Positions 1-47,003 of a stretch of DNA of 64,000 nt are shown here, piece by piece. How positions within the stretch are numbered: position 1 is the stretch's first letter; each line of letters begins with the position of its first letter. The notes beneath the pieces are model-generated. The model did no database searches and was not told where the DNA came from. It was given only the letters and a program-made list of their open reading frames with translations. The position numbers were made by a program, and so were the translations under genes. Source of the DNA: Escherichia phage HP3.2; the sequence record OP978391.1; one strand, written 5' to 3'.

Positions 1-150
1 GATGGATCTGATGTTCTGACAATTTCTAACTCTGCTGTGAATGCTCTTTTAATTAAGGCTATTCAGGAAATGAGTGAAGAAATTAAAGAATTGAAAACTC
101 CTTTCTTTACTAAAATTGCTCGCAAAATTAGTAAATATTTTAAATTCTAA
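1..150 (+). CDS. 3' end of upstream ORF, partial; likely C-terminus of the long tail fibre distal subunit (gene 37 position)
   Basis: Frame open from window edge to TAA at 148-150; lies immediately upstream of gene 38. Confidence 0.4.
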   Translation, partial: DGSDVLTISNSAVNALLIKAIQEMSEEIKELKTPFFTKIARKISKYFKF

Positions 151-156
151 CAACAA

Positions 157-171
157 GGGGGAAATGCCCCC
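157..171 (+). terminator. GC hairpin GGGGG-AAATG-CCCCC followed by TTT
   Basis: Perfect 5-bp G/C stem read directly; short T run after it. Confidence 0.3.
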
Positions 172-186
172 TTTGGAGTATAAATT

Positions 187-958
187 ATGGCAGTAGTTGG
201 TGTTCCTGGTTGGATTGGAAGTTCAGCCGCAAATGAAACAGGACAGCGCTGGATGAGTCAAGCGGCTGGTCAATTAAGATTGGGTGTTCCTTGCTGGATG
301 AGTCAATTTGCAGGTCGCTCACGAGAAATTATTCACAGACCATAACTTCAATGGTCAATGGTTCCGAGATAGATGTTTTGAGGCAGGTAGTGCACCTATA
401 GTGTTTAATATTACAGGTGATTTAGTATCATATTCTAAAGATGTTCCTTTATTCTTCATGTACGGAGATACACCGAATGAATATGTTCAGTTGAATATAC
501 ACGGCGTAACGATGTATGGACGTGGCGGTAATGGCGGTAGCAATAGTCCTGGTTCAGCTGGAGGTCATTGTATTCAAAACGATATTGGTGGGAGACTAAG
601 AATTAATAATGGCGGAGCTATTGCAGGCGGCGGTGGCGGCGGCGGCGGCGGATATTATTCTCCTTTTTCACAAATGAGATTGACCTTTGGCGGCGGTGGC
701 GGTCGTCCTTTTGGTGCGCCAGGCGGATCTATTGATATGCAATCAGGCGCGACTGGCGGTACTATTTCTGCACCTGGCTCAGGATCCGTGAATGGTATAT
801 ATAATGGTGGAAACGGCGGTGAAGTAGGTTCAGCGGGAGGTAGATGTAATATTCGTGGTCAAGGATATGAATACGATGGCGGAGCTGCCGGTTATGCCGT
901 CATAGGGTCTACGCCGACATGGCAAAACGTTGGAGCAATATATGGTCCAAGAGTATAA
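187..958 (+). pseudogene. 38: Gene 38 receptor-recognising adhesin (T2-type, glycine-rich), reading frame disrupted near 337-345
   Basis: ATG 187 gives MAVVGVPGWIGSS...SREIIHRP then TAA 343-345; rest (DHNFNGQWF...GGGGGGGGG...GPRV) is in the +1 frame (track ORF 308..958); SD GGAG upstream of 187. Confidence 0.6.
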
Positions 959-988: not shown

Positions 989-1645
989 ATGGCAGCACCT
1001 AGAATATCATTTTCGCCCTCTGATATTCTGTTGGGTGTTCTAGATCGCTTGTTCAAAGATAACGCTACCGGGAATGTTCTTGCTTCCCGGGTAGCTGTCG
1101 TAATTCTTTTATTTATGATGGCGATTGTTTGGTATAGGGGAGATAGTTTCTTTGAGTACTATAAGCAATCAAAGTATGAAACATACAGCGAAATTATTGA
1201 AAAGGAAAGAAATGCACGCTTTGAATCTGTCGCCCTGGAACAACTCCAGATAGTTCATATATCATCTGAGGCAGACTTTAGTGCGGTATATTCTTTCCGC
1301 CCTAAAAACTTAAACTATTTTGTTGATATTATAGCATACGAAGGAAAATTACCTTCAACAATAAGCGAAAAATCACTTGGAGGATATCCTGTTGATAAAA
1401 CTATGGATGAATATGCAGTTCATTTAAATGGACGTCATTATTATTCCGACTCAAAATTTGCTTTTTTACCAACTAAAAAGCCTACTCCCGAAATAAACTA
1501 CATGTACAGTTGTCCATATTTTAATTTGGATAATATCTATGCTGGAACGATAACCATGTACTGGTATAGAAATGATCATATAAGTAATGACCGCCTTGAA
1601 TCAATATGTGCTCAGGCGGCCAGAATATTAGGAAGGGCTAAATAA
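989..1645 (+). CDS. t: Holin t
   Basis: 218 aa, recognised as T-even holin; AAAGGAGG RBS upstream; follows gene 38. Confidence 0.93.
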   Translation: MAAPRISFSPSDILLGVLDRLFKDNATGNVLASRVAVVILLFMMAIVWYRGDSFFEYYKQSKYETYSEIIEKERNARFESVALEQLQIVHISSEADFSAVYSFRPKNLNYFVDIIAYEGKLPSTISEKSLGGYPVDKTMDEYAVHLNGRHYYSDSKFAFLPTKKPTPEINYMYSCPYFNLDNIYAGTITMYWYRNDHISNDRLESICAQAARILGRAK

Positions 1646-42898: not shown

Positions 42899-44608
42899 TT
42901 AAACCATTACAGTAAATCGACCAACTTTCTTCATTTGAAGATGCTGACCATATTCTTGCGGGTCATGGTCTTTATGCGAAATTATAAAAACATTAGTGTT
43001 TTTCATTGAATTTATAATATTAGCTACACCTTTAATACCTTCGGCATCAAATGACCCATCAAACACTTCATCAAGAATTAATGTACTAATACTAACACCA
43101 GATACGATAGAAGCAATATCACGCCAAGTAAATAAAAGAGCAATATCAATTCGTGCCTTTTCACCTTCACTAAATGAAGCATAACTAAAATCTTCACGAC
43201 CACGGGATTTAATTGTCTCATTAAATTCTTCATCTAATGTAAACACATAATCCGCTTCCATTATTTTAAGATAATGGTTAATCTGCTTATTAAATAATGG
43301 AATGTACTTTTTAATAATAGCACCTTTAATACCAGAATCTTTGAGCATATCAGTCAAAATTCCTCGGTGGTATTTTTCCATTACTAAATTAGTTTTTGTC
43401 TTAACAATTTTATCAAGTTCTTCTTGAAGCAGTGCTATTTCATCAGCATGGTCAATAAACTCGGATGATGCTTTTTCTATAGCTGCTTTAACTTTTTTAG
43501 CTTTATCTACTGTCGTGATTAGAGATTGCTTTTTATTGCGAATATCATTTGCCAACGACTGCTGGGTTTTAATATTATCTCGGTATTCATCAACAAGAAC
43601 TTTTAAATTATCACGGTGCGTTGAAAGCTGTTCAAACGAATGCGTACATTCAGAAACTTTATCTTTAATTTTAGAAACAACTTTATCACCGGAACTTAAT
43701 TGTGACAAACAGGTTGGACATAATCCACCTTCGTGATACATATTAATGACTTTATTATACGAGTCAATTTTTGATTTAATTAAAACTGCTTCTTGACCGA
43801 TTTTATTAAATGCATCAGTCGGGTCTTCATCTAAAACAATATTAACTAATCTTTCATTAGCTTCTTCTATTTCCGATTTTAGCGTTCTAGCTTCTTTTGC
43901 CAAATCATCATACATATTTTGTAGACGAGTAAGGTTGTCACCCGTTAATTTTTTCTGGCGTTCAACGTTATCATTATATATTTTAATTTGTTGGATAATA
44001 CTATCTTTTTTAACATCAAGCACTTGGTTTTGTGAATTTAATTCACGTATTAGTGCTTTATTAAGCTTATCCATTTCAGCTAATGTTCCTACCTCAAGCA
44101 GGTCTTCCACAAGCTTTCTTCGCGCAGGGGTCGACAAACCCATGAAAGGGGTATACCCTGCTGTACCAAGGACAACAATCTGCTTGAAACTGGCATATGA
44201 CATTCCGATAAGCTGTTCAAATTCTGCTTGGAAATCTTTACTGCTGGCAGATTCATTAAGACGTGTACCGTTAACGGTGATTTCGAAAACGTTTGGTTTT
44301 TGTCCTCTTTTGATATAGTACTTTTTCTCATCATATTCCATCCACAGTTCAACTAAAAGTTCTTTCTTATTTGTGCTGTTTATTAATTGACCTTTCTTAA
44401 CATCACGAAATGGTTTACCGAAAAGTCCGAAAGTAATGGCTTCTAACATCGTAGATTTACCACCGCCATTTTTACCTGTGATTAAGGTCTTTTGGACTTT
44501 ATCTAATTGGATATCGATAAAATTTTGCCCCTCGAATCCATCATCATCTTTAACGTCCATTTCGACTTCAAGCCTGAGTCCAGCATTGTTAAATTCATCT
44601 AAAGTCAT
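42899..44608 (-). CDS. 46: Recombination nuclease subunit gp46 (Rad50/SbcC-like)
   Basis: 569 aa; Walker A GKNGGGKST; coiled-coil middle with CPTC zinc hook. Confidence 0.9.
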   Translation of the reverse strand: MTLDEFNNAGLRLEVEMDVKDDDGFEGQNFIDIQLDKVQKTLITGKNGGGKSTMLEAITFGLFGKPFRDVKKGQLINSTNKKELLVELWMEYDEKKYYIKRGQKPNVFEITVNGTRLNESASSKDFQAEFEQLIGMSYASFKQIVVLGTAGYTPFMGLSTPARRKLVEDLLEVGTLAEMDKLNKALIRELNSQNQVLDVKKDSIIQQIKIYNDNVERQKKLTGDNLTRLQNMYDDLAKEARTLKSEIEEANERLVNIVLDEDPTDAFNKIGQEAVLIKSKIDSYNKVINMYHEGGLCPTCLSQLSSGDKVVSKIKDKVSECTHSFEQLSTHRDNLKVLVDEYRDNIKTQQSLANDIRNKKQSLITTVDKAKKVKAAIEKASSEFIDHADEIALLQEELDKIVKTKTNLVMEKYHRGILTDMLKDSGIKGAIIKKYIPLFNKQINHYLKIMEADYVFTLDEEFNETIKSRGREDFSYASFSEGEKARIDIALLFTWRDIASIVSGVSISTLILDEVFDGSFDAEGIKGVANIINSMKNTNVFIISHKDHDPQEYGQHLQMKKVGRFTVMV

Positions 44609-45624
44609 TGTGTTGCCTCTACATATAGCTGATTTGCATATTGAATAAGTGCTTCACGGTCAGAATCAGTGATGTCTGGAATTGCATTAATATACTCTTC
44701 CATTAATGTCTGAAGCGATTGGACTTCAACTTCTTCACTGTCATCTGACTCGACAGAGTTATCAATCTTTGACACAACTCGTAATGAATGCACAACTTTT
44801 TCTAGTTCAGATTCGAACTTCGTTAGATTTTTGTCTACTTCAGTTACTATAACACGTACTGATAGATTTGTAAAATCTTTATAGTCAATTTTTCCTTTAA
44901 ATGGATAATGAATTCTACGATGCCAGGTAGTATTGTTTGGAATAAATTCCATTCGTTCTGTTTCTGTATCAAACATCCAGAACCCGCGAGGGTCATTCTC
45001 GTCACCTGCAGTTAGTGTCCATGGTGTCCCAATATATCTGACGTTAGCAGCCTCAGAGATAGTATGGAAGTGACCAGACCACACTTCTTTATAAGTCTTA
45101 AGGAAATCAGGTTCAAGACCATGAGATTTCATTCCTTTATAAAAATAAAATCCATTCAGTTCCCAGTGACCAACACAAAAAGAAGCAGATGAAGTTTTGA
45201 TGTGCTCAAGAATTTCACCAGTATTTTCTTCACACATCCAAGGAATTAAATCAATTAAACATCCGTCAAAATCTACTGTAGTAGGCTTATCATATACTTT
45301 AACATTAGGATATTTAGCCAAAAGCTCAGTAGAGGCATTTGGATGCATTACATTTTTGTAGTGGAGATCGTGATTTCCTACAATAGTATGTAATGTGATT
45401 CCAGCGTCATCAAGCATTTGAACTATTTCACGGGCAAACTCCATAGTTTTATGCGTGATCGCTTTTCGTACATCAAAAATATCACCGTATTGAATCCATA
45501 CAGTAATTCCATTTTTCTTAGAATATTCTATCGCTTGCTTAATTCCATCAATTTGAATACCGCGAATCCATTCATCATCAGCTTTAACACCTAAATGCCA
45601 ATCACCTAAATTTAAAATTTTCAT
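44605..45624 (-). CDS. 47: Recombination nuclease subunit gp47 (Mre11/SbcD-like)
   Basis: 339 aa; phosphoesterase motifs GDWHLG, GNHD; ATGA overlap with gene 46. Confidence 0.9.
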   Translation of the reverse strand: MKILNLGDWHLGVKADDEWIRGIQIDGIKQAIEYSKKNGITVWIQYGDIFDVRKAITHKTMEFAREIVQMLDDAGITLHTIVGNHDLHYKNVMHPNASTELLAKYPNVKVYDKPTTVDFDGCLIDLIPWMCEENTGEILEHIKTSSASFCVGHWELNGFYFYKGMKSHGLEPDFLKTYKEVWSGHFHTISEAANVRYIGTPWTLTAGDENDPRGFWMFDTETERMEFIPNNTTWHRRIHYPFKGKIDYKDFTNLSVRVIVTEVDKNLTKFESELEKVVHSLRVVSKIDNSVESDDSEEVEVQSLQTLMEEYINAIPDITDSDREALIQYANQLYVEATQ

Positions 45625-45802: not shown

Positions 45803-47003
45803 ATTTTGTAATAATGTCAAACTGTTCTTTAAAGCAGAAGCTTGAATCTTGATGCTGATACAAAAATTCATATGCTTTTTCTCGCTCACGGTCATAAAGA
45901 GCTCGGTCAGATGACAGTTCTTTAATACGCTCGAATGTTGATTCCATGCCATTTTCATCAAACCAAATGATACCGCTATCATGCGAGGTCAAAGGAGTAT
46001 TATCAACACGGAATTTTAAATTTTCGCCAGTAGATTTCCAGAAAACAGGAATTGTACCGCAAGCACCTAATTCAAGATGAGTATATTCTAGTGAGCGTTG
46101 TAAGTATTTCTGGTTAAGTTTACTCAACTGATATCCAAAGCCAGATTTACTCATTCGTTCAAGCATTTCACTATTAATATAACAATCTAGGATTTGTGCC
46201 GGTTGATTCGGCGTGAGATTCATTTTATCGATCTCACGATTACCGTAATATTCATACGGAATACCTTTTTCCTTAATTGCAATAAAAGCAGGGGAACGTT
46301 CAAGACCTTCCATTACAGTGGATTTACCAGCAGGTTTTAAGAATTTTTCGTGAAAATCAAACATCTGGTAAAAACCTTTCCATGTAGTCGTACGACCAAT
46401 CCAACGATTGATATTCATGTTAATTTCAGAAACATCTTTCCAGTAGGTTGATCGAACTTTCGCAATATCCATAGGAGGCTGAAAATTATATACTGTTGGT
46501 GCTTCTTCAATATCATCAAACAGAGAAACAGTTTCTGGATACCATTCTTTCATCAGAACTTTATTAAAATCGCCATTATCAGAATGACTAAAAATAACAT
46601 CAGCTCGACGAACAGTTTCTTCTAATCCCAAATTTCGACGCAAAGAAAGAACAGAATGATCATGCTGATAAACTACAACACGAATAGAAGGTTTAATATT
46701 ATCTAAAAGTTTTTTATAGTTATTAATCGTGGCTTCTTGAACGGAAGTAGCAGGAACAGAATTAATAATTAGAATATCACAATCATTTACCAGCTTAAGT
46801 GCTTTATCGTATTCTTTAGCTAAAATAACTGGAATTGAAAATGATTTGTGGTCATGAGAACTTGTACGAGTAAATGATTTATCTTTAGCATAAACCAAAG
46901 TTACTTCATGACCATTCTTAATAAACCAATCACGTTGCTCGAGTGAGAATTTTGTTACACCACAACCTTCAAGACCTCGAGCCATAAAAATACATACTTT
47001 CAT
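45801..47003 (-). CDS. agt: DNA alpha-glucosyltransferase
   Basis: 400 aa; matches T4 alpha-gt in length, sequence and position after gene 47. Confidence 0.9.
   Translation of the reverse strand: MKVCIFMARGLEGCGVTKFSLEQRDWFIKNGHEVTLVYAKDKSFTRTSSHDHKSFSIPVILAKEYDKALKLVNDCDILIINSVPATSVQEATINNYKKLLDNIKPSIRVVVYQHDHSVLSLRRNLGLEETVRRADVIFSHSDNGDFNKVLMKEWYPETVSLFDDIEEAPTVYNFQPPMDIAKVRSTYWKDVSEINMNINRWIGRTTTWKGFYQMFDFHEKFLKPAGKSTVMEGLERSPAFIAIKEKGIPYEYYGNREIDKMNLTPNQPAQILDCYINSEMLERMSKSGFGYQLSKLNQKYLQRSLEYTHLELGACGTIPVFWKSTGENLKFRVDNTPLTSHDSGIIWFDENGMESTFERIKELSSDRALYDREREKAYEFLYQHQDSSFCFKEQFDIITK

Follow-up and report, generated by a model that had tools for sequence, protein, structure and literature searches.

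An 11-bp deletion splits the gene 38 adhesin of an HP3-lineage Escherichia phage across two reading frames

In the 64,000-nt stretch of Escherichia phage HP3.2 analysed here (OP978391.1; hereafter the window), gene 38, which encodes the tail-fibre adhesin, is split across two reading frames by one clean 11-bp deletion. Weighing the evidence set out below, we lean towards the view that this deletion is present in the sequenced DNA—be it spontaneous, engineered, or kept by co-infection or complementation—and that it constitutes a null adhesin allele.

Layout of the split gene 38 locus

The locus is gene 38 of the T2/T6 adhesin type and sits between gene 37 and the holin gene t, the position that gene 38 holds in relatives by synteny. 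The 3’ end of gene 37, encoding the distal long-tail-fibre subunit, occupies positions 1..150 of the plus strand (stop TAA at 148-150), as supported by synteny with the annotated gp37 CDSs of Pinarejo, HP3.1, C2-3, and RB14. On the same strand follow a putative regulatory stretch read from the sequence, namely an intergenic GC hairpin (GGGGGAAATGCCCCC; 157-171) and a presumed GGAG ribosome-binding site (175-178), 8 nt before ATG187. The region comprising both (157..178) was invariant across five of five aligned phages, and a scan for terminator-like elements flagged the hairpin, too, on the minus strand. Downstream, the neighbouring holin gene t (989..1645, plus strand) is intact, forming a 218-aa ORF that agrees with the annotations of relatives.

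ATG187 opens a 52-codon reading frame (ORF1; MAVVGVPGWIGSS...SREIIHRP) that stops at TAA 343-345. Based on the ORF list, Pfam, a structural model, and the positions of its tryptophans, this first gene 38 fragment (187..345, plus strand) comprises gp38 residues 1-50, an out-of-frame R and P, and the stop. The second fragment (302..958, plus strand; ORF2) was delineated by a frame and start-codon survey, Pfam PF05268, and PDB homologues. It lies in the +1 frame (position mod 3 = 2), which is open over 302-958, bounded by a stop at 299-301 and by TAA 956-958 at its end. The zero frame and the +1 frame overlap by 14 codons, the zero frame ending in CCA TAA C. The ORF2 product contains glycine-rich segments, and the native gp38 reading within it, D55-V260 (338-955, plus strand, followed by TAA 956-958), covers the remnant of a beta-hairpin, a capping helix, a beta-helix, and a polyglycine sandwich with hypervariable loops. 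An earlier sequence-only reading had described an adhesin gene divided between two frames, and the coordinates it gave proved exact to the base.

A single 11-bp deletion accounts for the split

Alignment with Pinarejo, HP3.1, C2-3, and RB14 showed the window to lack one clean run of 11 bp, directly following its position 335. In the references, the site has the sequence ...GAAATTATTCA[CACGCTTGGAG]CAGACCATAAC..., where the bracketed 11 nt are missing from the window relative to HP3, HP3.1, Pinarejo, C2-3, and RB14. Because a 2-nt CA/CA microhomology flanks both ends, the placement of the gap is ambiguous by 2 nt, and the missing 11 bp can be written as CACGCTTGGAG or, equivalently, as ACGCTTGGAGC or CGCTTGGAGCA. 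At the resulting junction (335..338, plus strand), codons T51-A54 are removed. Re-insertion of the 11 nt restored a gene of 783 nt that matches Pinarejo gp38 at every base; over 851 bp, the gap is the sole difference from Pinarejo. The best megablast matches likewise spanned 862 bases as compared to 851 in the query, with 549 of 50,697 phage records matching.

The deletion site is unique sequence, neither a homopolymer nor part of the GGC repeats. Outside the gap, gene 38 carries no other decay or substitution relative to Pinarejo (one further base differs from HP3.1), which points to a recent deletion event. The indel considered in the sequence-only reading was borne out, its size of 11 bp rather than a single base and its location in unique sequence being refinements that came from the alignment. 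That reading had envisaged T2 and T6 as references; the nearest ones turned out to be the HP3 lineage and Pinarejo instead.

A Cas9 origin was considered as well. The intact sequence offers a TGG PAM (protospacer CGAGAAATTATTCACACGCT) that would direct a cut within the deletion, 1 nt from its left edge, a position compatible with CRISPR escape or knock-out. By our own estimate, ~1.6 PAM-consistent Cas9 cuts are expected by chance in an interval of such size; we therefore gave the coincidence no weight and regard it as non-discriminating.

The frame break falls between two structural domains

ORF1 matched Pfam PF21721 (Gp38_N) along its entire profile (1-40 of 40; E = 3e-21) and ORF2 matched PF05268 (GP38) over positions 7-218 of 218 (E = 1.5e-68), implying that the two-frame layout is no chance pattern. 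All three tryptophans W9, W22, and W37 fall within ORF1, and W9 and W22 are invariant in 55 homologues. Together with the position between genes 37 and t, the Pfam domains agree with the T2-type gp38 tail-fibre adhesin initially recognised from the sequence. A T4-type gp38, an assembly chaperone absent from the virion, was rejected: the two adhesin domains were the sole Pfam matches, and the partner gp37 possesses a self-cleaving, intramolecular Peptidase_S74 chaperone domain of its own, which argues for an adhesin. Specifically, the C-terminal 382 aa of HP3.1 gp37 matched Peptidase_S74 (E = 1.9e-11) and, at a borderline level, gp37_trimer (E = 2e-4).

Sequence homologues with solved structures in the PDB included 9v85_A, a GFP-gp38 fusion (E = 2e-79), and 6f45_D, Salmonella phage S16 gp38 with gp37 (E = 2e-49). 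S16 gp38 begins with a bundle of three helices that inserts its apical tryptophans into gp37 (PMC6851490), followed by a short linker, a beta-helix, and a polyglycine sandwich with hypervariable receptor-binding loops (PMC6851490; PMC12032242). AlphaFold2, applied to the closest intact homologue in the databases (98% identical), gave a model (pLDDT 88, pTM 0.79) with helices at residues 10-18, 23-29, and 38-40, then a beta-hairpin (48-52 and 55-58, turning at G53-A54) and the capping helix at 60-70. Since the deletion removes T51-A54, ORF1 comprises the complete gp37-docking domain plus half a strand, with the native reading of ORF2 resuming at D55, and the frame break coincides with both the Pfam domain boundary and the first beta-hairpin past the attachment domain.

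Across 39 aligned family representatives, the block holding T51-A54 is the best conserved stretch of the N-terminal half: conservation reaches 90% or more at G53 and A54, N59 never varies, and gaps occur there in 0 of the 39 representatives. The locus hence retains the attachment domain with its tryptophans and the glycine-rich body domain, and what distinguishes it from the family is the loss of a single continuous ORF. As judged from its sequence, it would be classed as a disrupted allele or pseudogene of the T2-type gp38 family and not, as written, as a functional member.

Set beside known systems, the nearest intact copies of the receptor-recognising adhesin of T2/T6/Ox2/M1-type phages are those of Pinarejo (PP925831), HP3.1 (OK275722), and C2-3. 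Their gp38 is the same gene, at the same position between 37 and t and with both Pfam domains; relative to such intact gp38 copies (about 256-266 codons), the window lacks 11 bp and its frame is broken after codon 50. The S16 gp38-gp37 structure (6F45) and 9V85 share the predicted architecture of attachment domain, beta-helix, and polyglycine-II sandwich (PMC6851490; model). Unlike S16 gp38, the window encodes attachment domain and body in different frames; the hypervariable loops differ too, as expected for a different receptor.

The deletion allele is unique among public sequences

The junction sequence had no exact match in viral, metagenome, or genome contig collections. A BLAST search of phage records with a 90-nt junction probe returned 271 records aligning across the site. 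Among the 271, every best-ranked match covered 101 nt as compared to 90 in the window, at 89.1% identity—equalling the 11-nt gap—and no full-length match to the probe in these phage records scored above them. Accordingly, 271 of 271 site-spanning phage records keep the 11 nt and a single frame. The same probe gave one match in E. coli genomes, which also contained the 11 nt, and none in plasmids (BLAST).

At the protein level, exact look-ups of the ORF1 product and of the products from four possible ORF2 starts found no match, and no database homologue was naturally split at the deletion site. Intact gp38 copies consist of one ORF of about 250-266 codons, all aligned homologues being continuous across the site. 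Our literature search retrieved neither an HP3 derivative with a gene 38 deletion nor a naturally frameshifted gp38 adhesin. The 11-bp lesion itself is therefore new and unique among the public sequences searched.

The allele is predicted to be null for the adhesin

Assuming that the recent 11-bp deletion with its CA microhomology flanks is present in the sequenced DNA of this HP3-lineage phage, ribosomes initiating at ATG187 would make only a 52-residue peptide, consisting of the three-helix domain that docks onto the gp37 tip, then R-P and the stop. The receptor-binding body, D55-V260 in the +1 frame, would be devoid of a start signal of its own, and would either be unmade or be made but untethered to the fibre. 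In a survey of in-frame ATG, GTG, and TTG codons together with 20 nt upstream, the 5’ end of ORF2 offered no ATG and no convincing consensus ribosome-binding site. Weak restart candidates were limited to TTG308, preceded at 6 nt by a weak GGATGAG motif, and GTG401, with an AGG-rich stretch upstream. Neither was retained: restart at TTG308 would give a product with ten foreign residues and half of the first hairpin missing, and restart at GTG401 one without residues 1-75, including the capping helix, and both products would be untethered to gp37.

The T2-type gene 38 deletion phage DT2(delta g38) forms plaques only with gp38 supplied in trans (PMC12892980). Like DT2(delta g38), the window represents a T2-type long tail fibre without a functional gp38, for which the expected phenotype is likewise no plaques unless gp38 is provided in trans; in DT2(delta g38), however, the whole gene was removed by design, whereas the window carries an 11-bp frameshift that leaves the attachment domain expressible. 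Given that gene 38 is essential in the T2-type system, the allele as written would be null. From this essentiality and from the conservation of the gene, we infer a loss of gp38 function.

HP3 and HP3.1 depend on OmpA and LPS (PMC8092219), and the allele would be null for the long-tail-fibre adhesin that partners these receptors. A phage with only the deletion allele would be expected neither to adsorb nor to form plaques unless it co-infects with wild type or receives gp38 in trans. The lesion would not act as the genuine host-range mutation entertained in the sequence-only reading: the allele reads as null, parting the gp37-attachment domain from the receptor-binding body in a gene that is essential in T2-type phages (PMC12892980).

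The window as a sibling of HP3.1

Throughout its 64 kb, the window matches HP3.1 (OK275722) and HP3 (NC_041919 / KY608967) almost base for base. Its position 1 corresponds exactly to HP3.1 coordinate 64001, so the two records share their linearisation as well as their length over the first 64 kb, which suggests that the window derives from a sibling genome of HP3.1, possibly processed through the same pipeline. As compared to HP3.1, the window differs at the gene 38 site, at three single-base positions (672, 27486, and 45949), by one 3-bp contraction, and by one recombination patch. At both positions within the window where HP3 and HP3.1 differ (672 and 27486), it carries the HP3 base. This leaves four window-specific changes: the gene 38 deletion, an ATC contraction, a D352G substitution, and a Mosigvirus-like patch.

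Real deletion or artefact

The exact diff between the window and HP3.1 over 64 kb contained no homopolymer or scattered error-type indel, and the sole other small indel was an in-frame contraction of an ATC repeat from three units to two. The assembly therefore looks accurate, and the exact 64-kb comparison with HP3 and HP3.1 ruled out a generally poor assembly quality. The marks of an artefact, namely a homopolymer or repeat site or many other indels, were not seen at the deletion site. None of the other window-specific changes closes a reading frame, as expected of genuine mutations in a phage that replicates, and they look biological; among the window-specific differences, the gene 38 deletion is the only one to break a frame. 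Spontaneous or break-repair deletions of T-even phages typically have such microhomology at their flanks. We infer from these observations that the deletion resides in the DNA rather than stemming from the assembly.

Against a real deletion speaks that the gene is essential in T2-type phages, a null allele being unexpected in a plaque-purified stock; its occurrence would thus favour an error, or else a minority or complemented variant. Also, the junction is found in no other public sequence searched, so that it is attested by this record alone. We accordingly take seriously, as a lesser but substantial possibility, that the gap arose by mistake during assembly, consensus calling, or editing of the record and that the phage gene is intact, with 260 codons as in HP3 and Pinarejo. 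In favour of such an error are the essentiality of the gene (PMC12892980), its base-perfect state apart from the gap, and the uniqueness of the deletion allele among all public sequences searched; artefact-like frameshifts also exist in deposited gp38 sequences (HP3 RefSeq; the aberrant C-termini of Bp7 and RZ). Those known gp38 artefacts, however, are found in repeats rich in GGC or at the circularisation junction of a record, whereas the present 11 bp lie in non-repetitive sequence, unlike the usual homopolymer or repeat error. Moreover, a k-mer assembler would not be misled by a microhomology of just 2 nt, and the other differences from HP3.1 are single-base changes, an in-frame repeat contraction, or a recombination patch.

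If the deletion is real, as we favour, the phage might conceivably still be infectious, either because the ORF1 attachment domain is complemented by a re-initiated body (from TTG308 or GTG401) or because adsorption proceeds without gp38, through the short tail fibres or an uncapped gp37 tip. We regard this as improbable. The break does fall almost exactly between two structural domains, TTG308 and GTG401 do come with a weak GGATGAG and an AGG-rich upstream stretch, respectively, and the remaining changes private to the window suggest a lineage that has evolved under selection. Yet ORF2 is served by no ATG and no consensus ribosome-binding site, bodies initiated at TTG308 or GTG401 would be defective with nothing to tether them to gp37, loss of gp38 from a T2-type fibre prevents plaque formation (PMC12892980), and databases hold no naturally split homologue. 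Marginally lower still we rate an HP3 derivative that infects without a covalently intact gp38, using either a two-piece adhesin divided exactly where the attachment domain meets the body or fibres capped only by the 52-residue domain plus another adsorption route. Were it true, the T2-type tip adhesin would be dispensable or functional when split.

The least probable explanation is that the two ORFs are translated as one adhesin through a programmed +1 ribosomal frameshift or a bypass within 302-345. The 14-codon overlap ahead of a zero-frame stop (CCA TAA C) would permit it, and T-even phages are known to use recoding elsewhere, as in the gene 60 bypass. But no relative has the split arrangement, the 271 of 271 site-spanning phage records being uninterrupted. 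Within 302-345, there is no +1 slippery motif, as CCA before TAA cannot re-pair on CAU, and codon-by-codon inspection revealed no upstream Shine-Dalgarno-like stimulator. Nor did the sequence contain matched take-off and landing codons that would restore the frame, and RNA folding was no better than in shuffles (z = 0.20). A +1-shifted gp38 product, expected to carry the junction peptide EIIHRPNFNGQW, would still miss the conserved T51-A54. With neither recoding signals nor conservation of the split, the earlier ranking of an indel or genuine mutation above recoding holds. The lesion is an ordinary frameshift, be it a knock-out lesion or a sequence error, and no recoding device.

Implications for HP3-lineage stocks and records

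HP3 and HP3.1 are therapeutic candidate phages that feature in animal models and cocktail design (PMC8092219, PMC9127763). A null adhesin allele in this lineage would mean one of two things: either the stock is heterogeneous or defective, with consequences for potency and lot release, or the record is erroneous, with consequences for annotation and for host-range prediction from the gp38 sequence (PMC12032242). The practical weight of the finding thus lies in the quality control of phage banks and stocks and in annotation; scientifically, it would be notable only if a clonal deletion stock proved infectious.

Gene 38 frame errors in other records

The HP3 record (NC_041919 / KY608967) belongs to the same lineage, and its gene 38 is likewise annotated as two ‘tail fiber protein’ CDSs, FDH36_gp001 and gp279. 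There, the split is due to four surplus bases (GGCG) at the circularisation junction, situated exactly at the ends of NC_041919 inside a GGC (polyglycine) repeat that corresponds to window position ~643/644. The surplus bases are absent from HP3.1, Pinarejo, and the window, which has its own lesion ~300 bp upstream; the HP3 record, in turn, keeps the 11 nt. Sequence comparison indicates that the GGCG surplus is almost certainly an assembly artefact.

Gene 38 frame errors are not rare in public data and cluster in GGC repeats. The gp38 C-termini of Bp7 (P0079) and vB_EcoM_RZ (P0116) are aberrant and apparently frameshifted, starting within glycine-rich segments. Further, a 303-aa entry from an E. 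coli assembly (P0034) has a Peptidase_S74 domain, as in the gp37 C-terminus, fused to gp38 sequence.

The HP3 artefact also bears on the numbering of a published mutation. At window 671-673 (base 672), the HP3.1 change reported as ‘Gln9 to Arg9’ (PMC8092219) equals Q166R of full-length gp38, in the hypervariable segment that follows the long run of glycines, and the window has the ancestral Q. The published numbering differs because it counts along the C-terminal CDS fragment that the artefact creates in the HP3 record. HP3.1 was described as carrying ‘just two SNPs’ (PMC8092219), which do not include a change at window 27486, where HP3 and the window have C and HP3.1 has T (G to D in the hypothetical protein HP3 gp219 / HP31_0139).

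Other differences in the genome

Between 44387 and 44627 (about 44.39-44.63 kb), the window contains a Mosigvirus (RB69/G2285)-like patch of 97-98% identity in a genome that is otherwise HP3-identical. The patch touches the minus-strand gene 46 ORF (42899-44608), next to gene 47 (44605-45624, minus strand). An internal deletion of ~453 bp removes 46.1 and most of 46.2, and gp46 (SbcC/Rad50-like) carries, joined in frame immediately ahead of IDIQLDK, the initial ~26 codons of a Mosigvirus-type 46.2. In the fusion, the N-terminus MTLDEFNNAGLRLEVEMDVKDDDGFEGQNF thereby replaces VKNFKLNRVRYQNIMSVGGNP and adjoins the Walker A motif. This fusion is unique: all of the best-ranked phage records matched the 67-aa query in two pieces spanning 654 nt.

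Both DNA glucosyltransferase genes of the window genome carry private changes relative to HP3 and HP3.1. At ~34369, the minus-strand ORF for beta-glucosyl-HMC-alpha-glucosyltransferase has lost one ATC unit, shortening IDDDTT to IDDTT (residue ~81-83), and at 45949, the minus-strand alpha-glucosyltransferase ORF bears the non-synonymous substitution D352G. These changes might reflect selection on DNA modification.
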